Virus record (IMG/VR): IMGVR_UViG_2531839454_000016
DNA: 16,885 nucleotides
Direction: 5' to 3' (one strand)
Source of the DNA: a virus
Taxonomy: Duplodnaviria; Heunggongvirae; Uroviricota; Caudoviricetes
Below the pieces are notes generated by a model, which worked only from the letters and a program-made list of their open reading frames with translations, searched no databases and was not told the origin of the DNA. The position numbers and the translations under genes are program-made. Below, piece after piece: positions 677-16,885 of this stretch; position 1 is the first letter of the stretch, and every line of letters starts with the position of its first letter.

Positions 677-3250
677 TTACTGGACGGCGACAATCCGGTC
701 TTCATTAACTTCCAGGCGAATCACTTTACCCGGAACCAATTCACCAGACAGTATTTGCTGTGCCAGCGGGTTTTCGATCTGCTGCTGGATAGCACGTTTC
801 AAAGGACGTGCACCATAGACTGGATCGTAACCGTTCTCGCTCAGCAGTTTCAGCGCCTCGTCAGAAATGTGGATTTCATAACCACGTTCTTCCAGACGTT
901 TGTACAGACGTTTCAACTGAATCTGCGCAATCGAGGCAATGTGCTGTTCACCCAGCGGATGGAAGACCACCACTTCATCAATACGGTTAATGAATTCCGG
1001 ACGGAAGTTATGGCTTACCACACCGAGCACCAGCTCTTTCATGTGCGCATAATCCAGTTCACCGAAGCGTTCCTGAATCAAATCGGAACCGAGGTTAGAG
1101 GTCATAATGACAACCGTATTACGGAAGTCGACCGTTCTCCCCTGCCCGTCAGTCAGACGACCATCATCCAGTACCTGCAACAGAATGTTGAAGACATCCG
1201 GATGCGCTTTTTCCACTTCATCCAGCAGGATGACGGAATACGGACGACGACGCACAGCTTCGGTCAGGTAGCCACCTTCTTCATAACCGACATATCCCGG
1301 AGGCGCACCAACCAGACGAGACACCGAGTGTTTCTCCATAAACTCGGACATATCGATACGGACCATCGCCTCGTCGCTATCAAACATAAAGTTCGCCAGC
1401 GCCTTACAAAGCTCAGTTTTCCCCACACCCGTTGGGCCGAGGAACAGGAATGAACCAATCGGGCGATTTGGATCCGCCAACCCCGCACGGCTACGGCGAA
1501 TAGCGTTAGATACCGCATCAACCGCTTCGTTCTGACCAATGACGCGATGGTGCAGTTCTTGCTCCATACGCAGCAGTTTTTCGCGCTCGCTTTCCATCAT
1601 GCGAGAAACCGGAATCCCCGTCCAACGCGCCAGCACTTCAGCAATTTCGGCGTCGGTCACTTTATTACGCAACAGACGCATAGTTTTGCCTTCGAGCTGC
1701 GTTGCGGCTTCCAGTTGCTTTTCCAGTTCCGGGATTTTGCCGTATTGCAGTTCAGACATCCGCGCCAGGTCCCCCACACGGCGAGCCTGTTCAATAGCGA
1801 TTTTCGCCTGTTCCAGTTCCGCTTTAATGGTCTGCGTACCAGAAAGCGATGCCTTCTCTGCTTTCCACTCTTCTTCTAACTCGGAGTACTGACGTTCTTT
1901 GTCGCTCAGTTCTTCGTTGAGCATATCCAGGCGTTTTTTACTGGCTTCATCAGACTCTTTCATTAACGCCTGTTGTTCCAGTTTGAGCTGGATGATACGA
2001 CGATCGAGTCGGTCGAGTTCTTCTGGTTTTGAGTCAATCTGCATACGAATGCTGGATGCTGCTTCATCGATCAGGTCGATGGCTTTATCCGGCAGCTGAC
2101 GGTCAGCAATGTAGCGATGAGACAACGTCGCCGCTGCAACAATTGCCGGGTCAGTAATTTGCACATGGTGGTGCAATTCGTAACGTTCTTTCAGGCCACG
2201 CAGAATCGCAATGGTATCTTCAACAGAAGGCTCGGCAACAAACACTTTCTGGAAACGACGTTCCAGCGCAGCATCTTTTTCGATGTACTGGCGATATTCG
2301 TCAAGCGTCGTGGCACCTACGCAGTGCAATTCACCACGCGCCAGCGCCGGTTTCAGCATGTTTCCGGCGTCCATTGCGCCATCGGCTTTACCCGCGCCGA
2401 CCATGGTATGTAATTCGTCGATAAACAGGATGACGTTGCCTTCCTGTTTGGCAAGATCGTTAAGCACGCCTTTTAAACGTTCTTCAAACTCACCGCGATA
2501 TTTCGCCCCAGCCCCCAGCGCGCCCATATCCAGCGCCAGTACGCGGCGGCCTTTCAATCCTTCCGGCACTTCGCCGTTGATAATACGCTGCGCCAGACCT
2601 TCAACGATGGCAGTTTTACCGACGCCGGGTTCACCAATCAGTACCGGGTTATTTTTAGTACGACGTTGCAGCACCTGAATGGTACGGCGAATTTCTTCAT
2701 CACGACCAATCACCGGATCGAGTTTGCCCTGTTCGGCTCGTTCGGTAAGGTCGATGGTATATTTTTTCAAAGCCTGACGTTGGTCTTCAGCACCTTGATC
2801 GTTCACGCTTTCACCTCCACGCATTTGTTCAATCGCTTGAGTAATGTTGGCGGTGGTCGCCCCTGCTGCTTTCAGGATGTCGGCCAGCGTGCCGCGAGAC
2901 TCAAGTGCCGCCAGAACGAACAGTTCTGACGAGATAAAGTTATCACCACGTTTTTGCGCCAGCTTGTCGCAAAGATTAAGAACGCGCACCAGATCCTGTG
3001 ATGGCTGGACATCACCACCAGTACCTTCAACCTGCGGTAAACGATTTAATGCCTGATTGATATCTGTGCGCAACTGGCCAGCATTTATGCCAGCGGATGT
3101 TAATAAAGGACTAACCGAACCCCCTTCCTGATTCAGCAGGGCGCTCATTAAATGAAGTGGTTCGATAAATTGGTTGTCGTGCCCGAGTGCAAGTGATTGG
3201 GCATCGGCAAGAGCAAGCTGGAATTTATTAGTAAGACGATCCAGACGCAT
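677..3250 (-). CDS. clpB: ClpB disaggregase (Hsp100 AAA+ chaperone), 857 aa
   Basis: ORF 677..3262; translation from [20 protein letters not shown] to NEDRIVAVQ matches ClpB, with two AAA+ modules (GEPGVGKT and GPTGVGKT Walker A) and a coiled-coil middle domain. Start placed at the MRLDR ATG, preceded by GGGAGGAG. Confidence 0.95.
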
Positions 3251-3287
3251 AACTCCTCCCATAACGGATCAAAGTTGCTACTGGAGA

Positions 3288-3320
3288 TTAAATGAGGTCA
3301 TCCCTCAATTATTCAAGGTT
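3288..3320 (-). promoter_or_regulatory. Putative sigma32 heat-shock promoter of clpB
   Basis: Minus strand reads CTTGAATAATTGAGGGATGACCTCATTTAATC, with CTTGAA as -35 and CCTCATTTA as a sigma32-like -10 about 14 nt downstream. Confidence 0.55.
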
Positions 3321-3379
3321 ATTGACCAGATTAATGTGAAAAGAAAATCACGCGTACCGGATCGTCTTGATTCTTTAGG

Positions 3380-6130: not shown

Positions 6131-6160
6131 TTGACAAAAAGTGACAAAATTATGAGATTC
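6131..6160 (+). promoter_or_regulatory. Candidate raiA promoter (-35 TTGACA)
   Basis: TTGACAAAAAGTGACAAAATTATGAGATTC about 70 nt upstream of the raiA ATG; the -10 assignment is ambiguous. Confidence 0.35.
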
Positions 6161-6176
6161 CCATCACACATTTTGA

Positions 6177-6572
<396 letters not shown>

Positions 6573-6595
6573 TCCTTTATATTGAGTGTATCGCC

Positions 6596-6620
6596 AACGC
6601 GCCTTCGGGCGCGTTTTTTG
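6596..6620 (+). terminator. Rho-independent terminator after raiA
   Basis: AACGCGCC-TTCG-GGCGCGTT followed by TTTTTG. Confidence 0.75.
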
Positions 6621-6696
6621 TAAAGCTAACAAATTGTTTCTATTAGCTTATTTCTTATAAACATCCACAAACTGTCCACATCAGTAATGATATACA

Positions 6697-6722: not shown

Positions 6723-7529
6723 TTATGTAGCCGAAATGGTTGTGGTAATAGTCCCCCGAAGCCGCTGCGCTGCTACCTCAAAATAATGATCACTGGTTTC
6801 TATACCAATAAATTTTCGCCCTGCTTTCAGTGCAGCCACACCCGTTGTCCCTGACCCCATAAAAGGATCAAGGACTGTTCCGCCACTATTCACAGTCCTG
6901 ACCAGTTCCGCCATTAGTTCTTCTGGTTTTCCGGTCGGGTGCATTTTCTTTGACGGGATAACCGGGTACGTCATGCAGCCGTCGAACGGCCCCGAAGGCG
7001 ATTTATCTAAATGGCCTTTGCTGCCCCAGACGATGTATTCACACTGATGCCTGAAATACCCCGTATGGGGTGTTCGTGACCCCCTCCCCTTGTTCCACGC
7101 AATGATGCCGCGCCATGTAAAGCCGCTGGCCTGAAACGCATCGGTTAAAGCTGGTAGTTGTCGCCAGTCAGTAAATACCAGGGCATAACCGCCCGGCCTG
7201 ACTGCGCGGTGTGCCTGTGCCATCCATAATTGTGTCCAGTAAGCCCACGAACGGGCGTCCATGTTTTCACCCGCGAACCCATCAAAGCGGTGAAGGTTCT
7301 CGCTGTTCAGATATTTTGCATGGCTGCCCTGGTTGGTGCGTCCGGCTTTGTGTGTCGCCCCCGAACTGTAAGGCGGGTCAGTGATTAAGGCATCAATGCT
7401 TTCTGGCTCAATCAGCGGCAATATTTCCAGCGCATTCCCACGACAGAGCGTGGCATTGTCAGTCTGATAAACCTTAGTGTGTTCCGGTGTATGTGCTGGT
7501 TGGTGCTGGATTGCGATCCCCACGGTCAT
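6723..7529 (-). CDS. DNA methyltransferase, amino-methyltransferase type (N6-adenine or N4-cytosine), 268 aa
   Basis: ORF 6723..7529; DPPY catalytic motif near the N-terminus (LITDPPYSSG) and AdoMet-binding FxGxG near the C-terminus (DPFMGSGTTG); ATG preceded by SD GAGGAG. Confidence 0.8.
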   Translation of the reverse strand: MTVGIAIQHQPAHTPEHTKVYQTDNATLCRGNALEILPLIEPESIDALITDPPYSSGATHKAGRTNQGSHAKYLNSENLHRFDGFAGENMDARSWAYWTQLWMAQAHRAVRPGGYALVFTDWRQLPALTDAFQASGFTWRGIIAWNKGRGSRTPHTGYFRHQCEYIVWGSKGHLDKSPSGPFDGCMTYPVIPSKKMHPTGKPEELMAELVRTVNSGGTVLDPFMGSGTTGVAALKAGRKFIGIETSDHYFEVAAQRLRGTITTTISAT

Positions 7530-7671
7530 AACTCCTCATGTGTGTGGGGTGCTCGATGGCTCTCGTTATCTGGTTAAGTGTTTTGCAGCGCGGACATTTT
7601 ATTTCAATGTAGTGAAATGAGGCGCGGGCAAGTAGTTTGTTGCAATTTTTGCATCGTACATTTTGCGTCAT
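7474..7671 (-). CDS. Com-like zinc-finger protein (phage Mu Com family translational activator), about 65 aa
   Basis: ORF 7474..7680; RCKNCNKLLA...HYIEIKCPRCKTLNQI closely resembles Mu Com (C-x2-C...C-x2-C). Its 3' end overlaps the methyltransferase start by 56 nt. ATG at 7671 preceded by AAGAGG; alternative GTG start at 7680. Confidence 0.7.
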   Translation of the reverse strand: MTQNVRCKNCNKLLARASFHYIEIKCPRCKTLNQITRAIEHPTHMRSYDRGDRNPAPTSTYTGTH

Positions 7672-7710
7672 TTGCGGCACCTCTTGTGTGGTTACTGCTG
7701 CCGATATGAT

Positions 7711-7863: not shown

Positions 7864-8160
7864 TTAGCCATATTTGCGGGCAAAGTCTTCATCAGAGGTG
7901 CATAGATAGATAAAAAACTCAATAAATGCCACGATTGCCGGAATGAATGTCCAGCAAAAAATAAGGTAAAGGAATCCTTGCCCCACTTTACCTAAATAAA
8001 ATTTGTGTGCACCAAGACCACCTAAAAAGAAAGCCAGTAGTGCGGCTGTCATTCTGCTTTTTGAACTTGCTGTTCTTTGAGGTGCTCCACAATTGGGGCA
8101 GGATGTGGCATCTTTATGTATTTCCTTGCCGCATCCGCGACAAAATACCATTTCACTCAT
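7864..8160 (-). CDS. Small membrane protein with N-terminal zinc ribbon and C-terminal TM2 domain, 98 aa, function unknown
   Basis: ORF 7864..8160; CRGCGKEIHKDATSCPNCG zinc ribbon; TM2 signature LLAFFLGGLGAHKFYLGKVGQGFLYL with two predicted TM helices; SD AAGGAA upstream. Confidence 0.7.
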   Translation of the reverse strand: MSEMVFCRGCGKEIHKDATSCPNCGAPQRTASSKSRMTAALLAFFLGGLGAHKFYLGKVGQGFLYLIFCWTFIPAIVAFIEFFIYLCTSDEDFARKYG

Positions 8161-8295: not shown

Positions 8296-8436
8296 TTACT
8301 GCTTACACTGTAAGAACGCCGCAAACTCCGCTCCCCAGAAGCTCATCCGTATTTCACACAGCGAACCGTGCAGCATCCAGATGATGAGGATTACCGTCAC
8401 GCAGAACGTGATGGCCGTAAGCGATTTTTGCGACAT
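8296..8436 (-). CDS. Hok/Gef-family small membrane toxin homologue, 46 aa
   Basis: Hand translation of the minus strand gives MSQKSLTAITFCVTVILIIWMLHGSLCEIRMSFWGAEFAAFLQCKQ: a hydrophobic TM helix followed by the Hok signature SLCEIR...E.AAFL.CK. SD AAGGAG lies 8 nt upstream. Below the 60-aa cut-off of the ORF track. Confidence 0.75.
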   Translation of the reverse strand: MSQKSLTAITFCVTVILIIWMLHGSLCEIRMSFWGAEFAAFLQCKQ

Positions 8437-8627
8437 AGCGCTTGCTCCTTTGTTGGAGAGGCGCTAACCTATCACTTGCTTAAGGTAGATATGTTAGGGC
8501 CTCGGTTAAACAGAAATGTTTTCCGGGGCCTTTCCACATCTGGCCTTCGGGTATTCCCTCCGACCATCAGCCGAAAGGCACCCGCGCGTAATCTATCGCT
8601 TTTTTGTTACTCCGGCAATTCTGCCTG

Positions 8628-8888
8628 TTAATTCTGAGATAAAGGCAAACTCATCTGATTGTTTCCCCTGTGTGAAGCTGGCAGCTCATGCCACGGGATA
8701 CCTTCTGAAGAGTGAACGCCGGAGGCGTGTTTTGATGTGAATTTATGGAAAGCTTCCAGTGTTGAGAAGCATACGCCGCATTCCAGATTGTTACACTGGT
8801 AATACTTTTGCCGCACGGTGTTTGAATCATTTTCCGGACGACTGGTGCGGATACGGGCAGATGCGCCACAAAGCGGACAACGGAACAT
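8628..8888 (-). CDS. ogr: Ogr/Delta-family zinc-finger late transcription activator, 86 aa
   Basis: ORF 8628..8888; MFRCPLCGASARIRTSR...YYQCNNLECGVCF matches the P2 Ogr C-x2-C...C-x4-C motif; strong SD GGGAGG; located directly downstream of gpD as in P2. Confidence 0.85.
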   Translation of the reverse strand: MFRCPLCGASARIRTSRPENDSNTVRQKYYQCNNLECGVCFSTLEAFHKFTSKHASGVHSSEGIPWHELPASHRGNNQMSLPLSQN

Positions 8889-8930
8889 AGCGACCTCCCT
8901 TAACGTGGTGCTGCCGCTATTCTAAGTTGC

Positions 8931-10040
8931 TCACTCTGTTTCCGCTATCCATTCCGGGATTTTTGCCTCAAGCTCAAGCTGCGTGGTAAAGCCGCTGTTA
9001 TCAATGGTGTGCTCGGCTTTTGCAATAATCCAGTCCTGATTATCAATCTCGCTTTTAAATCCTGTTACCGTGCCATGCATTTCGGGGTAGAGTTCTGCTC
9101 GTCCACGTGCCAGCGTGATGGAGAATGATGCGGCTCCGCGTTGTAGTTGTTGCCACTTTGCCGCCGCTGCGCGTCTTGCTGCCTGCTCGTTCTGATAAGT
9201 CTTGCGTAACACAAACACATTGCCTTCCGCGCCTTCCATATAATCACCTTCACGGCTGCTGCTTTTCTCCTTTTTGGGTTTTGGCGGTTTGCGGCGTTTC
9301 ACGCTGACTTTTTTCTTTTTCCCGTAATTAAGATCAAGCCAGTAGGCGCGTACCCCCGTATACGCCTCGCGGTCAGCAATGCGGAACTGATGGCGATCGC
9401 CGCTGCTGCGTGTAATGGCGAACGAGGGCAACGGCTGGCCCTGTGCGTTCACGCCACCGCCTGGCATAATGAATAACAGATTGCCGCTTTTTACCGTGGT
9501 GATTGCGCCCAGCATTTCCGCCATGCGCGTAAGGAAGGACATGTCGCTTTCTTCGGTCTGGTCGGCGTGGTCGATTTCGATATCCATCAGCATTTCGCTG
9601 ATTTGCGGTTTCAGACCGTACCGATGAGCGATGGCGGATACCACGCGCTCAACGGTCACATCATGCCAGGACACCTCACGTTTAACGTTAAATTCATCCC
9701 GAAAATCTGCGCTTCTGGCTGAAACAGTCAGCCTGTCCGGCGGTCCTTCGTGAGCGATTTCATCAACAATGTAAGTGCCTTTTTCTGTCAGCGGTTCTCC
9801 TTTCCAGCCAATGAGAACCGTCAGGCGCGCGCCCCGTGGCGGTAGCTGCAACTGACCATCCGCATCATCCAGCGTGATGGTGAGCTGGTCCGCCTCAAAT
9901 CCCCGGTTGTCGGTCAGTGACAGGCTCATCAGGCGCTCTGCCACGCCTGACAGCGTTTTACCCTCCGCGAGAATATCAAAATCCGGCATTTTCACGGGGT
10001 CTGTGCCCTGACTGAGCAATTGCATGGTGGTGTCGGTCAT
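8931..10040 (-). CDS. Phage tail protein D (P2 gpD, late control D family), about 370 aa
   Basis: ORF 8931..10172; start placed at MTDTTMQLL (ATG 10040-10038) preceded by GGGAGGGAG; size and sequence character match P2 gpD. Confidence 0.85.
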   Translation of the reverse strand: MTDTTMQLLSQGTDPVKMPDFDILAEGKTLSGVAERLMSLSLTDNRGFEADQLTITLDDADGQLQLPPRGARLTVLIGWKGEPLTEKGTYIVDEIAHEGPPDRLTVSARSADFRDEFNVKREVSWHDVTVERVVSAIAHRYGLKPQISEMLMDIEIDHADQTEESDMSFLTRMAEMLGAITTVKSGNLLFIMPGGGVNAQGQPLPSFAITRSSGDRHQFRIADREAYTGVRAYWLDLNYGKKKKVSVKRRKPPKPKKEKSSSREGDYMEGAEGNVFVLRKTYQNEQAARRAAAAKWQQLQRGAASFSITLARGRAELYPEMHGTVTGFKSEIDNQDWIIAKAEHTIDNSGFTTQLELEAKIPEWIAETE

Positions 10041-10197
10041 CTGCTCCCTCCCTGTGTGGCATGGTCGCATGTGCGTGCGGAGGGGGTTACTGCTTTTTGT
10101 TGTCGCCGTGGCGGGAGAATGGCGCAGGGGTGAGATTACGCGCGTGGTGGGTGATGATTGTTGCCGAATCATTTAACGGATACAAGGGGCTGAAGCT

Positions 10198-11382
10198 ATG
10201 AGTGAAACTCGTTTTCATGGTGCCCGTGTTACGGAAAATACCGACCTGGTAACAGCGATTAACGATGTTGATTCCAGCGTTATCGGTATCGTGGCAACGG
10301 CGGATGATGCGGACGCGAAGCTGTTCCCGCTGAACAAGCCCACACTGCTGACCCGCGTCAATGACGTGCTGGGAAAATGCGGGACAACGGGGACGCTTTA
10401 TCGTGCGCTTAAGGCCATCGCAGACCAGGTGAGCACAAAGGTGATCGTCGTTCGCGTGGCTGAACACAAAGAAGAAGACGAAAAGACGCAGGATCAACTG
10501 GTTATCGGTGGTTCTGAGGATGACGGCAGCTATACGGGGATGTATGCGCTGCTTGTTGCAGAGCAGGATGAAAGCATCGGATACCGTCCGCGTATTCTGG
10601 CCGCGCCGGAGCTGGACACGGAGGCTGTAACAAAATCCCTGTGCGTGATTGCAGGTAAACTGCGCGCGTTTGTGTATGCCTCATGTCACGGCTGTAATAC
10701 GATGGCTGAGGCGATTACCTACCGCCAGAAATTCAACGAACGTGAGGGGATGCTCCTATGGCCGGACTTCATCGCCTACAACCCGAAAAGTGGCAAAAAC
10801 GAAACGTTCCCCGCGCCTGCCTATGCGTGCGGCCTTCGTGCGTACATTGACCATGAGCAGGGATGGCACAAATCACTGTCCAACGTTCCGGTTAAAAATG
10901 TGCTGGGGATGTCGAGGCATGTGTTCTGGTCGTTGCAGGCCGAAGACAGCGATGCCAACAGCCTCAACAACAAAGAAATCACGACCATTATTCGTCGCAA
11001 CGGGTTCCGATTCTGGGGCAACCGCACACCGGAAACGAACGCCTACATCTTTGAGGTGTATACCCGAACCGCACAGGTGCTGGCTGATTCAATTGCGGAA
11101 GCGCAGTTTGAAACCATCGACAGTCCACTGACGCCTGCGAACGTGAAGGATGTTATCAGTGCCATCAGGGCAAAACTGGATTCACTGGTTACTGCCGGGA
11201 AACTGATTGGCGCGGAGTGCTGGTATGACGTGGTGGATAATAGCACCACGGATTTACGTCAGGGGCGTGTGCGTATTCGCTACAAATATACGCCCGTTCC
11301 GCCACTGGAAGACATGGAGCTTTACCAGACGTTTACTGATGAATACTTTGAACCCGCATTTGCGGTGCTGGGAGGTGCCTGA
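10198..11382 (+). CDS. Contractile tail sheath protein (P2 FI-like), 394 aa
   Basis: ORF 10198..11382; size and position (before tube and E/T/U) match P2 FI; C-terminus overlaps the next start (TGATG). Confidence 0.9.
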   Translation: MSETRFHGARVTENTDLVTAINDVDSSVIGIVATADDADAKLFPLNKPTLLTRVNDVLGKCGTTGTLYRALKAIADQVSTKVIVVRVAEHKEEDEKTQDQLVIGGSEDDGSYTGMYALLVAEQDESIGYRPRILAAPELDTEAVTKSLCVIAGKLRAFVYASCHGCNTMAEAITYRQKFNEREGMLLWPDFIAYNPKSGKNETFPAPAYACGLRAYIDHEQGWHKSLSNVPVKNVLGMSRHVFWSLQAEDSDANSLNNKEITTIIRRNGFRFWGNRTPETNAYIFEVYTRTAQVLADSIAEAQFETIDSPLTPANVKDVISAIRAKLDSLVTAGKLIGAECWYDVVDNSTTDLRQGRVRIRYKYTPVPPLEDMELYQTFTDEYFEPAFAVLGGA

Positions 11383-11894
11383 TGGCTGTGCCAAAACATC
11401 TTCGCTTTTTTACGCTGTTTGTGGATGGTGAAAACGAAGTGGGTAAGGTGACGTCCGTCACTCTACCTAAGCTGACGCGCAAAACCGACAGCTACCGGGG
11501 TGGTGGCATGATGGGTGCGGTAAGTATTGATCTCGGTCTGGACGACTCCGCGCTTGATGCGAGCTTTGTCATGGGGGGCGCAGTTCGTGAGCTGTTCCTT
11601 AAGTATGGCGGCACGATTGACGGCACGCTGCTGCGTTTTGCGGGTGAATACTACACCGATGCAGAAAGCGACCTGTATGAAGTCGAAATGCGCGGACGTG
11701 TGACGGAAATTGATATGGGGGAAGCCAAACAGGGCGAAGCCACATCACACACTTACGCCATTAAAAACACCTACTACAAGCTGAGTGTTAACGATCGCCC
11801 GTTGTGGGAGATTGACCTGCTGAACTTCATTTACCGGAAGGACGGCAAGGACATTGTGCCTGACCGTATCCGTTCCGCGCTCGGGCTTGGCTGA
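11382..11894 (+). CDS. Tail tube protein (P2 FII-like), 170 aa
   Basis: ORF 11382..11894; size and position match P2 FII; SD GGGAGGTG. Confidence 0.9.
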   Translation: MAVPKHLRFFTLFVDGENEVGKVTSVTLPKLTRKTDSYRGGGMMGAVSIDLGLDDSALDASFVMGGAVRELFLKYGGTIDGTLLRFAGEYYTDAESDLYEVEMRGRVTEIDMGEAKQGEATSHTYAIKNTYYKLSVNDRPLWEIDLLNFIYRKDGKDIVPDRIRSALGLG

Positions 11895-11949
11895 TAAGTA
11901 ATATGCAGGCGGCGCAGTGCGTCGCCTCTGACTGAAAAGGAGAAAACTG

Positions 11950-12324
11950 ATGAAAGACATCGATACTGAAACCCGGAATAACACCGTGGCGGATGATGTG
12001 ACGGCAGGTGAGGATATGGCTGTCGAACGTGGCGTAAAACTGACCCGACCAATTGAGCGTGGTGGCGAAAAAATCACGTATGTGGAGATCACCGGGGCTA
12101 TTGAACAGGCTGGATCCCTGCGTGGTCTGTCGCTGTCTGATGTGCTGAATCTGAAAGCGGATACCATGTTCACGCTGTTGCCTCGCGTGACCTCGCCACG
12201 ACTGGATGAAGTGATGATTAAAAAAATGTCGTCACGCGATTTTATTCAGTTGTGCGCTGTGGCTGTAAATTTTATGAGCGAGCCAGACTCTGGCGCGAAG
12301 AGCGCGCAGGAGACGGCAGCGTAA
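11950..12324 (+). CDS. Tail assembly chaperone (P2 gpE-like), 124 aa
   Basis: ORF 11950..12324 between tube and tape-measure genes; SD AAGGAG; gpE-like pattern (L..PI.RGG..I..V.I...G.LRG.SL.D). Confidence 0.75.
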   Translation: MKDIDTETRNNTVADDVTAGEDMAVERGVKLTRPIERGGEKITYVEITGAIEQAGSLRGLSLSDVLNLKADTMFTLLPRVTSPRLDEVMIKKMSSRDFIQLCAVAVNFMSEPDSGAKSAQETAA

Positions 12325-12488
12325 TCACCCTGGTGTGCTTTGAGCACATCGAAGATCTGGTGGCAGATATCGCCGCCATTTTTAACTGGTCGCCCGCCGA
12401 AATCTTCATGATGACGCCCGGCGAAGTGGTTAGCTGGCGTGAGCGGGCGGCACTTCGCAGCGGGAATGCAGACAATGAAGACTCTTGA
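11950..12488 (+). CDS. Predicted E+E' fusion chaperone made by -1 programmed ribosomal frameshift near the end of E
   Basis: The -1 frame is open from 12222 to the stop at 12486-12488, overlapping the last 34 codons of E and ending at the tape-measure start. An A7 run (12220-12226) in the E frame is a candidate slippery site. Confidence 0.5.
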
Positions 12489-15282
12489 TATCCGGGTCGC
12501 TTTCAGCGCCGTTGACAGGCTGACCCGGCCTGCCGAAAACGCCCGCCGCCTGATGGGGCAGTTTGGTGACTCCATCCAGCGAACGCAGGGGGCGATCAAA
12601 AATCTCGAGCGTCAGGCGCGTTCATTTGAGCGCGCCCGTGACGCTGTCAGTAAAGCGGATGCGGGCATCGTGAAAGCACGACGCCAGCTTAACGCCCTTA
12701 ATCAGTTACAACGCACGGGTACAGTGCTCAGCGAAAAACAACAAAAGCTGATGCAGCAGTTAAGCACCCGGCTTGAACGCCTGAATGAATCGCGCACACG
12801 GGAAATTCAGAAAATGCGGGAACTTGGCGGAGAGCTGAAACGCCACGGCATTTCCCTGACAGGCAGCGATAACACCATCCAGCAGGCCATCAGACGCACC
12901 GAACAGTACAACAACCAGCTTGAACGCGAACGGCAGGCGCTTGCGCGTGTAACACGTGCGCGTGAGCGGTATTCGCGCGCGCAGGAAACCGCGGGAAAAC
13001 TGAAAACAGGTGGTGCGCTGGCAATTGGTGCGGCAGCGGCTGGCAGCTATGCTGCCGGGCGTTTTTTGCAGCCTGCGATCGGGTTCGGGAAAGAGATGTC
13101 CCGCGTTCAGGCACTGACGCGAATCGACAAAAACAGCCCGCAGTTTAAGGCGCTGCGTGAGCAGGCGTTAAAACTTGGCTCTGAAACGCAGTTCACCGCA
13201 GGCGATGCCGCCAGTGGGCAGGCATTTCTTGCAATGGCTGGCTTCACACCGCAGGCCATTCAGGCTGCGCTTCCGGGCGTGCTGAGCATGGCAACGGCTG
13301 GCGGTATGGATCTCGGCGAGACGGCGGATATTGGCTCAAATATCCTGACGCAGTTCGGCCTTTCTGCTGACCAGATGGACCGGGTCGGTGACACACTTAC
13401 CGCAGCGTTTACCCGTACCAACACTGACCTTCGCGCACTGGGTGAAACCATGAAATATGCAGGTCCGGTGGCGGGTAAGCTGGGAATATCGCTGGAGCAG
13501 GCCGCAGCGATGGCGGGCGTGCTGGCGAATATGGGTATCAGGGGTAGTGATGCTGGTACGGCAATGCGTGCCAGCCTGGCTCGTCTGGCATCACCGCCAA
13601 AGGCGGCAGCAGAGGCGCTGAAAGAGCTTGGCGTGTCTGTCTCGGATGCCGGGGGCAAAATGCGCCCGATGGAGGATGTGCTGGCTGACCTTTATAAAGC
13701 CACCCGCAAATACGGGGAAGTTGACCGGGTATCGTTCTTTAAGGACATTGCCGGAGAAGAGGCTTTCACATCATTTATGGCCCTCGTTGATGCGGCAGGT
13801 GACGGCTCCTTACCCAAACTGAGAAAAGAACTTGAAGGTGCGCGCGGTGAGGCTGAACGCACGGCAAAGGTTATGGCCAATAACCTTGATGGCGACCTGA
13901 AATCACTCGGCAGTGCATGGGAAGGGCTGCGTATCCGCATTGCAGATCTGATTGATGGTCCGCTGCGTTCTGTCACGCAGTGGCTCACGCGGGTGGTCTC
14001 AAAGGTGACGGCGCTGGCACAGGCCCATCCGGTACTGACGCGCCAGTTACTGATAGCAGGCGGTGCGCTGCTGGCAATGACTGCAACGGTTGGCTCGTTG
14101 TCGCTGGTTATTGGAGTGCTTCACGGGAAGCTGGCCACGTTGCGTCTTGGTTTTTCTCTCCTGACCGGATCAATGAATGCTGTCAGGGTTCTGCCTGCAT
14201 TATGGGGAATGGTGACAGGCTCCATCTCGTTACTGGGAGGCGCTGTCGGGGCGCTGTTCAGTCCGGTCGGGTTGATTGCTGCAGCGTTTGTCGCTGCGGC
14301 GGTTCTCATCTGGAAATACTGGGAACCCATCAAGGCGTTTTATGCCGGGGTGTTCAGTGGGATTATGGAAAGGCTGACCCCGTTGCGCGAAACCTTTGAA
14401 CGGTTTAGTCCTGTTTTTGACGCAATCGGGAGTGGGATCAGCCAGGTGTTTAACTGGTTTAAATCGCTGCTGTCACCGATGGAGTCCAGCAAGGAAACTC
14501 TGGATAAATGTACCAGTGCTGGCGAGATATTCGGTAACGTTCTTGGCGGTGCGTTACAACTTGTTCTGACACCTGCAAAAATGTTGCTGGATACGCTGGC
14601 GTGGATACTTGAAAAGCTTGGTGTGCTTCCGGATGAAGCGGAAAGGGCGCGCAAGAAAATCGAAGACGCACAGCGTGCGGCCATTCTTCAGGACAAGGTT
14701 GCCTTGCTTCAGGGGGACCTGGCGAAAATCAATCCGCCGAAGCCTGTGGAAAATGGCAATGGCACCGGAGGTGATAACCCCAAAGACAATAAACCGCTCA
14801 CAGACAGCAATACCGGTACGCTGCGCAGACTCAGCAAAATTGCTGATAACACAGGTAAGCTGGTTGAGGAGACGAAAAAACGCATTGGCCCCGGCGATAT
14901 TGTCTTTAAAAACCTGCCCCGGGCACTTGCTGTTCGTGGGGAGTGGCAGGAGCGGAAGATTGCGCAGGTCAGTAAGCCTGCCCCCGCAATTAATATCACA
15001 CCCGTGGTCCCGGCTCCGCTGCCTCCGGCGCTGGTCACTGTTGTTGCGGCCAGCTCCCGCCCGGTGGCGGAGGCTATACGATCTCCAGTGGCATCAGTTC
15101 CTGTAACTTCCCGTAACCGGGAGCCTGTTGCCTCCGAATTTGGTGGTGAAATTCATGTTCATCTGCATAACGTTGTTACGCAGAATCCCCGCGAACTGGC
15201 GAAACTGGTCGGTGAAATGGTCAGGGCAGAAATGGAACGGCGCGCCCGTGCCGGGCGTGGCAGTTTTTACGATAAAGATTGA
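12466..15282 (+). CDS. Tail tape measure protein (P2 gpT-like), about 939 aa
   Basis: ORF 12439..15282; long alpha-helical protein with a central hydrophobic segment and Gly/Ala-rich stretches typical of tape-measure proteins; sits between the E/E' chaperone and gpU. Start ambiguous (GTG 12439, ATG 12466 or ATG 12475). Confidence 0.85.
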   Translation: MQTMKTLDIRVAFSAVDRLTRPAENARRLMGQFGDSIQRTQGAIKNLERQARSFERARDAVSKADAGIVKARRQLNALNQLQRTGTVLSEKQQKLMQQLSTRLERLNESRTREIQKMRELGGELKRHGISLTGSDNTIQQAIRRTEQYNNQLERERQALARVTRARERYSRAQETAGKLKTGGALAIGAAAAGSYAAGRFLQPAIGFGKEMSRVQALTRIDKNSPQFKALREQALKLGSETQFTAGDAASGQAFLAMAGFTPQAIQAALPGVLSMATAGGMDLGETADIGSNILTQFGLSADQMDRVGDTLTAAFTRTNTDLRALGETMKYAGPVAGKLGISLEQAAAMAGVLANMGIRGSDAGTAMRASLARLASPPKAAAEALKELGVSVSDAGGKMRPMEDVLADLYKATRKYGEVDRVSFFKDIAGEEAFTSFMALVDAAGDGSLPKLRKELEGARGEAERTAKVMANNLDGDLKSLGSAWEGLRIRIADLIDGPLRSVTQWLTRVVSKVTALAQAHPVLTRQLLIAGGALLAMTATVGSLSLVIGVLHGKLATLRLGFSLLTGSMNAVRVLPALWGMVTGSISLLGGAVGALFSPVGLIAAAFVAAAVLIWKYWEPIKAFYAGVFSGIMERLTPLRETFERFSPVFDAIGSGISQVFNWFKSLLSPMESSKETLDKCTSAGEIFGNVLGGALQLVLTPAKMLLDTLAWILEKLGVLPDEAERARKKIEDAQRAAILQDKVALLQGDLAKINPPKPVENGNGTGGDNPKDNKPLTDSNTGTLRRLSKIADNTGKLVEETKKRIGPGDIVFKNLPRALAVRGEWQERKIAQVSKPAPAINITPVVPAPLPPALVTVVAASSRPVAEAIRSPVASVPVTSRNREPVASEFGGEIHVHLHNVVTQNPRELAKLVGEMVRAEMERRARAGRGSFYDKD

Positions 15283-15294
15283 GGAGTCATGGCC

Positions 15295-15783
15295 ATGATG
15301 ATGATCTACGGCATGTTTGTTTTTGAGCTGCGCACGCTGCCGCATCAGCAGTTACAGCAAAACAAAAGCTGGCGGCATGTGAAAAATGAACGCATTAACC
15401 GTTCAGCAAGCTGGCAGTATATCGGTGCAGGTGATGATCGCATCGTTCTTTCTGGTGTGCTTTATCCTGAAATTACAGGTGGCGAAGTGTCGCTGTCGCT
15501 GCTGACCACGCAGGCTTATACAGGACGACCCTGGCCTTTGATTGATGGCGTCGGGCAGATTTACGGCATGTATGTCCTGACTGGAACGAATACGACCCGT
15601 TCCGAGTTTGATCGCTACGGTAAGGCGAAAAAGATAGAATTTTCACTGACCCTTGAACGCTGTGATGAGGATTTGCGGGAGCGCCTGCAATCCTCATCGT
15701 TCAGTGATATGCTGTCCGGCTTCAAAGATAAGGTCACATCATCCCTTAACAGCGCGGCCAGCTCCGTTAAAGGGCTGTTTTGA
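15295..15783 (+). CDS. Tail protein U (P2 gpU-like), about 162 aa
   Basis: ORF 15289..15783; MMIYGMFVFELRTLP... resembles the P2 gpU N-terminus; SD GAGGAG at 15281-15286 favours the ATG at 15295. Confidence 0.85.
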   Translation: MMMIYGMFVFELRTLPHQQLQQNKSWRHVKNERINRSASWQYIGAGDDRIVLSGVLYPEITGGEVSLSLLTTQAYTGRPWPLIDGVGQIYGMYVLTGTNTTRSEFDRYGKAKKIEFSLTLERCDEDLRERLQSSSFSDMLSGFKDKVTSSLNSAASSVKGLF

Positions 15784-15790
15784 TTAACGC

Positions 15791-15820
15791 AAAACCGCTA
15801 ATGGTCAGATTAGCGGTTTT
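15791..15820. terminator. Perfect 12-bp hairpin between the convergent gpU and invertase genes (likely bidirectional terminator)
   Basis: AAAACCGCTAAT-GGTCAG-ATTAGCGGTTTT followed by CATTTTCC on the plus strand; overlaps the last codons of the invertase. Confidence 0.6.
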
Positions 15821-16409
15821 CATTTTCCTGAGTCTGCCTGGTTGTTTCTTCAGCCTGTATATCGCCTACAGGGTGATAACGATAAATCGTCGATATGCCG
15901 ATGTCGTAAATGATCGCCAGTTGTTTCCTGTCATGACCGTTTTTAATCAGCCTCGCTATTTGCTCGTGTTGTTCTTTTGTCAACTTCGGGCGACGTCCGC
16001 CAATGCGTCCTTGTGCGCGTGCTGCTGCCAGCCCGGCCAGGGTACGCTCTACAATTAATTCACGTTCCATTTCGGCTAAAGCCCCCATGACGTGAAAAAA
16101 GAAACGCCCCATGGGTGTTGATGTGTCAATGCTGTCCGTCAGACTACGGAAATTAACACCTTTTTCCCGCAATTCCTCAATAAGCGTGATCAGGTGTTTC
16201 ATACTTCTGCCCAGTCTGTCCAGCTTCCAGACAACCAGCGTATCTCCTTCTGATAGCGTTCTGATCAGTTTTTTCAATCCCGGTCTGGCTGATTTCGTTC
16301 CGCTGATTTTATCTTCAAAAATTAGTTCACATCCTGCGCACTCCAGCGCGTTACGCTGCAATTCTGTATTCTGGTCATTTGTTGATACGCGGACATAGCC
16401 AATAAGCAT
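15810..16409 (-). CDS. Serine-recombinase DNA invertase (Hin/Gin/Pin/Cin family), 199 aa
   Basis: ORF 15810..16409; MLIGYVRVSTNDQNTELQRNAL...VVWKLDRLGRSMKHL...GRRPKL is near-identical in pattern to e14 Pin and Mu Gin, including the catalytic serine and C-terminal HTH. Confidence 0.92.
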   Translation of the reverse strand: MLIGYVRVSTNDQNTELQRNALECAGCELIFEDKISGTKSARPGLKKLIRTLSEGDTLVVWKLDRLGRSMKHLITLIEELREKGVNFRSLTDSIDTSTPMGRFFFHVMGALAEMERELIVERTLAGLAAARAQGRIGGRRPKLTKEQHEQIARLIKNGHDRKQLAIIYDIGISTIYRYHPVGDIQAEETTRQTQENENR

Positions 16410-16465
16410 GATGGATCCCCTGAATAAAAACCGGGGATGATGCCAGTTAGCCGTAATCTCTGCAT

Positions 16466-16491
16466 TTTCTTAAACGTTGGTTTGGGAGAAG
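16466..16491. other. hix/gix/cix-type 26-bp invertase crossover site
   Basis: Reverse complement TTCTCCCAAACCAACGTTTAAGAAAA matches hixL TTCTTGAAAACCAAGGTTTTTGATAA at about 20 of 26 positions (AAACC..GTTT core); about 57 bp upstream of the invertase start. Confidence 0.7.
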
Positions 16492-16650
16492 CGGCGAAAA
16501 GGGATGTGGGCACAGGAGAAAATCAGATACCGGATATGTCAGCCTGGAAAAGAAATCCGAGTTCTAATCGCTGGAGAAAATTGCCTGATGGAACCATCAT
16601 TCAAATGGGAATATCAGCATCAGGGCCATTAGGCTCACCCGACCAATAAA

Positions 16651-16885
16651 TTGCCTGATTTACGCGGTGAATTTATTCGTGGCTGGGATGACGGTCGCGG
16701 GATTGATACTGGTCGCGCTTTGCTTAATTGGCAGCCACACACAATTTTGGACCATGCACACTATATGGAATTATGGACAGGGGACGGACTCGCCGCAGGA
16801 AGTGCACGGGAAGGAGTAAACCCAGGAATACTGGCTACATACGGTGACGGGGGAATAGTTAAAACGGACGAACCCGGTCTTAAGG
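16651..16885 (+). CDS. Partial tail-fibre variable C-terminal segment (tail-collar-like domain), truncated by the window end; probably the unexpressed alternative segment of the invertible region
   Basis: Frame 1 translation LPDLRGEFIRGWDDGRGIDTGRALLNWQPHTILDHAHYMELW... resembles the phage tail-collar/tail-fibre motif. A different frame (16437..16649) is the one open across the crossover site, so there is a frame break near 16630-16650. Confidence 0.5.
   Translation, partial: MPDLRGEFIRGWDDGRGIDTGRALLNWQPHTILDHAHYMELWTGDGLAAGSAREGVNPGILATYGDGGIVKTDEPGLK

Follow-up and report, generated by a model that had tools for sequence, protein, structure and literature searches.

The DNA stretch analyzed here, referred to as the window, is 16,885 nt long (IMG/VR record IMGVR_UViG_2531839454_000016) and contains part of a P2-family prophage in which the tail genes FI to U lie on the opposite strand from their neighbors D and ogr. 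Gene calls were taken from the open reading frame (ORF) listing and Pfam scans. The prophage is P88-like (genus Xuanwuvirus, family Peduoviridae), and the window carries its ogr-proximal end, inserted downstream of raiA in Escherichia coli. The genes from ogr to the invertase are the following.

8628-8888, minus strand: ogr-like late-gene activator with a CX2C-X24-CX4C zinc finger, downstream of D on the same strand (Pfam Ogr_Delta, E=5e-14)
8931-10040, minus strand: gpD, late control D or baseplate hub protein, 369 aa (Pfam Phage_GPD, E=4e-17)
10198-11382, plus strand: FI, tail sheath (Pfam Phage_sheath_1, Gp18_domIII_N and Phage_sheath_1C; 99% identical to P88)
11382-11894, plus strand: FII, tail tube (Pfam Phage_tube, E=7.5e-47)
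11950-12324, plus strand: E, tail assembly chaperone (weak match to Pfam Phage_TAC_7)
12252-12488, plus strand: ORF of E' in the -1 frame, tail assembly chaperone, overlapping the 3' end of E
12439-15282, plus strand: ORF of T, tape measure protein, intact, probable ATG at 12475 (Pfam PhageMin_Tail, E=3.7e-58)
15289-15783, plus strand: U, tail protein (Pfam Phage_P2_GpU, E=1.2e-38)
15810-16409, minus strand: serine DNA invertase of the Gin/Hin/Cin type, convergent with U (Pfam Resolvase and HTH_7)

The tail module has the gene set of the P2 type, with a Pfam match for every one of FI, FII, E/E', T, U, D and the Ogr/Delta zinc finger. Each of the eight genes in the region is intact, and at the amino acid level they are 97%-100% identical to those of P88, except for E (75%) and the invertase (86%), which have diverged more between the two. 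The product of ogr shares 98%-99% identity with the ogr products of P88 and PhiSM, annotated or unannotated, and 36% with P2 Ogr; gpD is 99% identical to P88 gpD over its full length and 49% identical to P2 gpD. A longer gpD ORF beginning at 10172 (8931-10172, 413 aa) was rejected in favor of the ATG at 10040, which is preceded by a ribosome-binding site (GGGAGGGAG), agrees with the annotation of P88 gpD and holds a conserved position in the alignment of D/FI gaps described below. The start of T, which is 97% identical to P88 T, was placed from the annotated length in P88. Within the E/E' overlap, a candidate slippery heptamer (A_AAT_TTT) is present at 12267-12273, and the -1 frame stays open to 12488, overlapping the T start at 12475 as in P2. 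By analogy with E/E' of P2, E' would be expressed through a -1 frameshift. A near-identical genome has a "GpE family phage tail protein" annotated at the E/E' position.

In P2, the genes V W J I H G are followed by FI FII E E' T U D ogr, all on one strand, and it is against this order that the FI-U block is counted as inverted. The earlier note on this DNA had described ogr and gpD on the minus strand, diverging from FI-U on the plus strand across a 157-bp gap (10041-10197), and the U stop at 15783 separated by only 26 bp (15784-15809) from the stop codon of the convergent invertase gene, which begins at 15810. The ORF listing and Pfam confirmed this layout, and every coordinate proved correct. 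Its description of the FI-to-U block as inverted with respect to both flanks also holds: relative to P2, exactly that block is turned around, and V-W-J-I-H-G and D-ogr keep the P2 orientation. The gene set is otherwise that of the P2 F operon, at 33%-49% amino acid identity (tblastn). The flanks match too, V-W-J-I-H-G lying upstream and ogr and the attachment site downstream, and P2 and the prophage both have an activator of the Ogr type, overlapping E and E' genes and an element of the TGT-N12-ACA type upstream of FI. However, the seven genes of P2 are transcribed together from pF as a single operon on one strand, whereas in the window FI-U is inverted and D-ogr is a divergent unit. The slot that holds the fun(Z) cargo in P2 is occupied by the invertase.

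The same arrangement was found in functional phages. The segment from 8600 to 16885 aligns as one colinear piece, at 93%-96% identity, with eight Xuanwuvirus phages (P884B11, P88, Citrobacter phage PhiSM, 520873, 500465-2, 503458, PhiR44_2 and Chuche). The match to P884B11 has 95.9% identity over 94% of the segment and that to P88 has 94.9%, both without interruption; the high nucleotide identity to these two phages and the shared gene order place the prophage in the genus Xuanwuvirus. P88, P884B11 and PhiSM share with the window the colinear series ogr-D-FI-FII-E-T-U-invertase, with the same order, strands and 157-bp gap. The annotations of P88 and PhiSM give V W J I H G, an invertible G'/H' segment and the invertase; U T E' E FII FI follow on the opposite strand, and D (and ogr) is back on the first strand. 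P88 was induced with mitomycin C, forms plaques with a burst size of ∼65 and has contractile tails by electron microscopy, and its genome sequence was obtained from phage DNA (PMC5285337). For PhiSM, spontaneous release, plaques and lysogeny in K-12 have been shown (PMC6456863). A prophage of E. coli 504838, which is a different record from the window, is 99.9% identical, occupies the same raiA site and is full length, with portal, terminase, capsid, lysis, baseplate, tail-fiber and replication genes.

In that E. coli 504838 locus (L131), the annotation shortens gpD and frameshifts T and a tail-fiber gene (22032-22885, 25576-28381 and 29581-30083), all of which are intact in the window; this suggests assembly indel errors or very recent decay there.

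The order is also common and widespread. A 961-bp probe across the D/FI junction matched 1380 of the 5426 complete E. coli genomes and was colinear in 1356 of them, about a quarter of the total, the other 24 being partial matches; no E. coli genome among the sampled matches had the opposite orientation. The stretch from bamD to the window end was at least 80% covered in 127 genomes. A scan of viral contigs with gpD returned only copies 99%-100% identical and was uninformative on breadth, so a collection with one genome per species was scanned instead and gave 47 loci, the layouts of which were determined by local tblastn with the window proteins and the baseplate and fiber proteins of P88. All 43 loci with both FI and D had U-T-E-FII-FI divergent from D-ogr and V-W-J-I-H-G convergent on U. 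Their gpD identity to the window ranges from 65% to 99%, and they come from ∼20 genera of Enterobacterales (Salmonella, Citrobacter, Enterobacter, Klebsiella, Raoultella, Kluyvera, Kosakonia, Yokenella, Trabulsiella, Edwardsiella, Serratia, Chania, Rouxiella, Erwinia, Pantoea, Mixta, Izhakiella, Pectobacterium, Brenneria and Symbiopectobacterium). Among named phages, Novemvirus phiT5282H, Reginaelenavirus 3LV2017 and Reipivirus ST16-OXA48phi5.4 have the same order, which, with Xuanwuvirus, extends it to four genera of Peduoviridae recognized by the International Committee on Taxonomy of Viruses. The controls were P2 (49% gpD identity) and Burkholderia phage KS5, which is distant; both are colinear.

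Two loci labeled Firmicutes, a Vagococcus sp. WN89Y contig (L085) and the Planococcaceae metagenome-assembled genome UBA3378 (L126), have gpD-ogr regions 98%-99% identical to this E. coli phage and are most likely contamination or mis-binned enterobacterial contigs.

Taken together, the comparisons indicate with high confidence that the FI-U arrangement is the normal, clade-wide gene order of P88-like phages, namely V-W-J-I-H-G on one strand, U-T-E'-E-FII-FI on the opposite strand and D-ogr on the first, and does not reflect recent rearrangement, damage or faulty assembly. The order itself is already known, as the ordinary, already-deposited order of a common phage genus. Since P2 and KS5 are colinear, the simplest history suggested by the sequences is that a single ancient, clade-defining inversion probably took place in one Enterobacterales-infecting branch of Peduoviridae. 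Rearranged tail operons have been described in P2-like phages earlier, Smp131 being one case (PMC3931495). The P88 paper (PMC5285337) contains none of the words "invert," "gene order" and "synteny," and a literature search found no description of the FI-U inversion, of late promoters or of a split-operon, bidirectional architecture in P88-like phages.

The divergence leaves D with no co-directional gene upstream, and the D promoter must therefore sit in or near the 157-bp gap. The earlier note had proposed that gpD acquired its own promoter in this short region, and comparative evidence, above all a conserved Ogr-type dyad (T[G/C]T-N12-ACAAC) in the gap, supports the proposal. The putative elements are the following.

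10041-10197, no strand: divergent D/FI control region, 157 bp, predicted bidirectional Ogr-dependent late promoter, with pD leftward and pF rightward
10101-10118, no strand: putative Ogr-binding dyad TGTCGCCGTGGCGGGAGA, TGT-N12-AGA, centered at 10109.5
10153-10158, plus strand: -10-like hexamer GATGAT (or GGTGAT at 10150-10155) of the predicted pF, in a conserved block that is the reverse complement of AT..TC
10061-10066, minus strand: -10-like hexamer GACCAT after TG-n (extended -10) of the predicted pD, in the conserved block C.CGCGCGC.TG..A..AT, which reads TG-C-GACCAT in the window

The P2 activator consensus is TGT-N12-ACA (PMC3931495). Neither the D/FI gap of the window nor the late gaps of P88 contain an exact copy of it, and the element surfaced only when the P/O and FI/D gaps were compared with T[G/C]T allowed. 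On the other strand, the dyad of the window reads TCT-N12-ACA, then ACAAAAA. It resembles the annotated P2 activator sites, among which that of pV begins ATGTTGTC. An element of the TGT-N12-ACA type, a mark of Ogr-dependent promoters, lies upstream of the late operon. When 34 homologous FI/D gaps, all distinct and taken from the diverse loci, were aligned, T[G/C]T-N12-ACA stood at the aligned position in 32, ∼12 of them with the exact P2 consensus, and GACAACAAA is at least 90% conserved; these blocks stand out amid otherwise diverged sequence. The gap of the window contains TTTTGTTGT-N11-GAGAA at 10095-10119. The P/O gap of P88 and PhiSM contains TTTTGTTGT-N11-CAGAA, and the general form TTTTGTTGT-N11-SAGAA is found in the P/O gap of P88, PhiSM, phiT5282H and 3LV2017. 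P88, phiT5282H and 3LV2017, representing three genera, each have exactly one copy of the element in the P/O gap and one in the FI/D gap, with similar spacing to the flanking start codons. The P/O and FI/D gaps of P88-type phages share both motif and spacing, and the -10 predicted for pF takes the position equivalent to the pO/pP -10 in the P/O gaps.

Both hexamers are 46 bp from the dyad center, which would put the dyad near -55 in both directions. This geometry has a precedent in P2. One activator-binding site (3057-3087) is recorded there for pP and pO, the start points of which (3016 and 3127) are 111 bp apart and lie 56 and 55 bp from the center of the site. The P2 pP/pO region and the FI/D gap are thus alike in having divergent late units ∼155-175 bp apart and a single central dyad ∼55 bp from each start point, although the start points and site of pP/pO are annotated from experiments, whereas everything assigned to the FI/D gap is predicted from conservation. 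A generic sigma-70 scan gave no consensus match in the gap; for activator-dependent promoters this is expected, and the result is uninformative. From conservation and the analogy with P2, it is probable that one shared Ogr site drives a bidirectional pD/pF promoter from the 157-bp gap. Such a second bidirectional late promoter would be only a modestly new element; no description of it was found in the searchable literature.

A possible course of events can be outlined. The inversion would have split the F operon known from P2 into two divergent late units, FI-FII-E/E'-T-U and D-ogr, both most likely driven by one central dyad-symmetric Ogr site ∼55 bp upstream of each start point. FI-U transcription would end at a hairpin located after U:

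15791-15820, no strand: bidirectional intrinsic terminator between U and the invertase gene, a 12-bp perfect stem with a flanking A-run and T-run

The hairpin overlaps the last 11 nt of the invertase ORF, and its fold energy is -15.6 kcal/mol on the plus strand and -16.9 kcal/mol on the minus strand (z = -3.9 and -4.4, respectively). On the opposite side of the gap, D-ogr would become a separate, self-reinforcing late unit. The dyad symmetry of the pF Ogr site may explain why the inversion was tolerated and possibly went to fixation: after the flip of FI-U, D would have lain on the upstream side of that site and would have needed only a -10 element at the mirror-image distance to become Ogr dependent, giving a second promoter like pP/pO and a separate D-ogr unit. 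On balance, this account of how the inversion came to be kept appears somewhat more plausible than not.

Several points weigh against the interpretation developed so far. The half-site of the dyad in the window is TCT/AGA and not TGT/ACA as in the P2 consensus, and the predicted start of pD leaves a leader of only ∼14 nt. The promoter model is built on conservation and analogy, and this applies equally to Ogr binding and to the transcription start points. The polarity given to the inversion, derived here and ancestral in P2, comes from only two colinear comparators. Finally, the window ends at 16885 within the tail-fiber region and so covers only part of this particular prophage.

Among the alternatives, the one that survives best accepts the order as normal but gives D an independent promoter, constitutive or otherwise dependent, in the gap or inside FI, with the dyad serving pF only. 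The dyad is indeed off-center in the gap, 88.5 nt from the FI ATG versus 69.5 nt from the D ATG, and the -10 of pD is a weak match in a gap where the sigma-70 scan detected nothing. However, the block C.CGCGCGC.TG..A..AT on the D side is strongly conserved at the mirror-image distance from the dyad and resembles the pP side of the P/O gap (CGCGCGCGGGTAAT); P2 offers a precedent for one site serving two divergent promoters; and gpD is a structural tail protein needed simultaneously with the FI-U products. An independent pD is accordingly considered unlikely, while retaining some weight.

Far less probable is the proposal, raised in the earlier note, that a recent local inversion or rearrangement has left a defective prophage or a tailocin-like remnant. 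The order does differ from that of P2, and truncated relatives do exist: the loci L127, L129 and L130 (Brenneria sp., Symbiopectobacterium sp. and Erwinia mallotivora, respectively) have D-ogr without FI, and in 24 E. coli records the match extends over less than 80% of the junction probe. Yet the order of the window is also that of plaque-forming phages, of the 1356 E. coli genomes and of relatives down to 65% gpD identity, and none of the eight genes is damaged. Moreover, the near-identical prophage and the phage relatives carry head and replication genes, and the former also carries lysis genes, which argues against a tailocin. The earlier note had itself named functional relatives with a normal divergent D/FI order as the observation that would count against a defect or an artifact; P88, PhiSM and other functional phages have that order, and by that criterion neither reading is supported.

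The truncated D and ogr of L127, L129 and L130, which lack the FI-U block, are genuine remnants of the same phage type.

It is less probable still that the 5.6-kb FI-U block is a giant invertible segment, turned in the past or even now by the neighboring serine invertase through secondary gix-like sites. In favor of this idea are the invertase gene abutting U and a genuine gix-like site that lies 60 bp past the start of that gene:

16467-16490, minus strand: gix/cix-like crossover site TTCTCCCAAACCAACGTTTAAGAA, at the edge of an invertible tail-fiber segment

This is the only gix/cix-like or hix-like site in the window, where none is expected by chance, and it lies outside both junctions. As the earlier note had observed for hix-like sites, neither end of the FI-U block (10041-10197 and 15784-15809) has a gix- or hix-like sequence, even with mismatches allowed. 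An inverted-repeat search of 8500-16885 returned only short pairs at chance level, none of which links the two junctions as the earlier note had thought worth checking. In 36 of the 43 related loci the order is the same with no invertase next to U, which it adjoins in only seven, and the flipped state would cost D its conserved divergent promoter region. The two marks of a site-specific invertible segment, sites at its ends and both orientations among relatives, were thus not found for the FI-U block, given the 1356 colinear genomes among 1380 and no opposite orientation in the sampled E. coli matches. Because the invertase is present in so few loci and the block ends have no gix-like site, the order is independent of the invertase, which plays no role in the FI-U inversion and is an optional neighbor, a tail-fiber switch of the Gin/Cin type. 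In the near-identical locus L131, the partner of the crossover site is an inverted copy that lies within the tail-fiber gene at a distance of 1836 nt. The system resembles the Mu G, P1 C and e14 P segments (Gin, Cin and Pin, respectively), in which a serine invertase lies beside a ∼1.8-kb segment with inverted sites in tail-fiber genes; in the window it acts on the tail-fiber segment to the right of the invertase gene and is unrelated to the orientation of FI-U.

The least probable reading, that the contig is chimeric at 10041-10197 and 15784-15809, has nothing in its favor beyond the unusual order and can practically be dismissed, as both junctions are colinear in many independent complete genomes and in phage genomes from different platforms and neither has repeats able to mislead an assembler.

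The invertible tail-fiber segment covers 16467-16885 of the window and corresponds to 29573-31444 of L131; the window ends inside an alternative C-terminal fiber exon (ORF 16437-16649 and beyond).

To the left of ogr, the window differs from P88: the cargo between ogr and the attachment site is not the same, and the match to P88 begins only at 8600. In the window, this cargo consists of a DNA methyltransferase together with a regulator resembling Com, a TM2 protein and a hok/gef gene.

6723-7529, minus strand: DNA methyltransferase (N6_N4_Mtase), prophage cargo
7474-7680, minus strand: Com-like zinc-finger ORF, overlapping the methyltransferase
7864-8160, minus strand: TM2-domain protein of 98 aa with an N-terminal zinc ribbon, prophage cargo region
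8296-8436, minus strand: hok/gef-family toxin ORF of 46 aa, between the TM2 protein and ogr

The Com-like ORF encodes a 68-aa zinc ribbon upstream of the methyltransferase and is annotated as a "Com family" regulator in a near-identical genome. The pair (6723-7680, minus strand) lies between raiA, at the attachment site, and ogr, and looks like a mobile, translationally controlled modification cassette in the style of Mu com/mom. In Burkholderia phage KS5, a Com and N4/N6 methylase pair occupies another slot, between the tail-fiber assembly gene and FI. P88 also has a hok/gef gene at the equivalent place. No sok-type antisense RNA scored above the Rfam threshold in the window, and the Rfam scan added nothing between 8931 and 16409.

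The left part of the window is E. coli chromosome and contains the end of a 16S rRNA gene, clpB, the small RNA RyfD, yfiH, rluD, bamD and raiA. RyfD (Ysr155) was matched by Rfam with 125 bits at 3231-3369 on the minus strand, between clpB and yfiH, an ordinary chromosomal context. The P2-family prophage end starts after raiA (6231-6572, plus strand), and the insertion point is just 3' of this gene within the bamD-raiA-pheL region. An ORF at 6150-6632 on the minus strand was rejected as a prophage gene; an annotated relative has raiA there, on the plus strand at 6231-6572. In other E. coli genomes, the same phage type is found at several different chromosomal positions.

For the annotation of P2-family prophages, inversion of FI-U with respect to D-ogr is no reason to call an element rearranged, defective or misassembled. 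The divergence of FI-U and D-ogr is the reference order for Xuanwuvirus, Novemvirus, Reginaelenavirus and Reipivirus and for many unnamed prophages of Enterobacterales, and the conserved motif T[G/C]T-N12-ACAACAAA could serve in annotating late promoters in this clade. If the proposed promoter is correct, the gap would be a clean example of how a dyad-symmetric activator site lets an inversion split an operon without loss of co-regulation, and D-ogr would form a self-activating unit, which could have a dosage and timing distinct from those of the genes for sheath, tube and tape measure.

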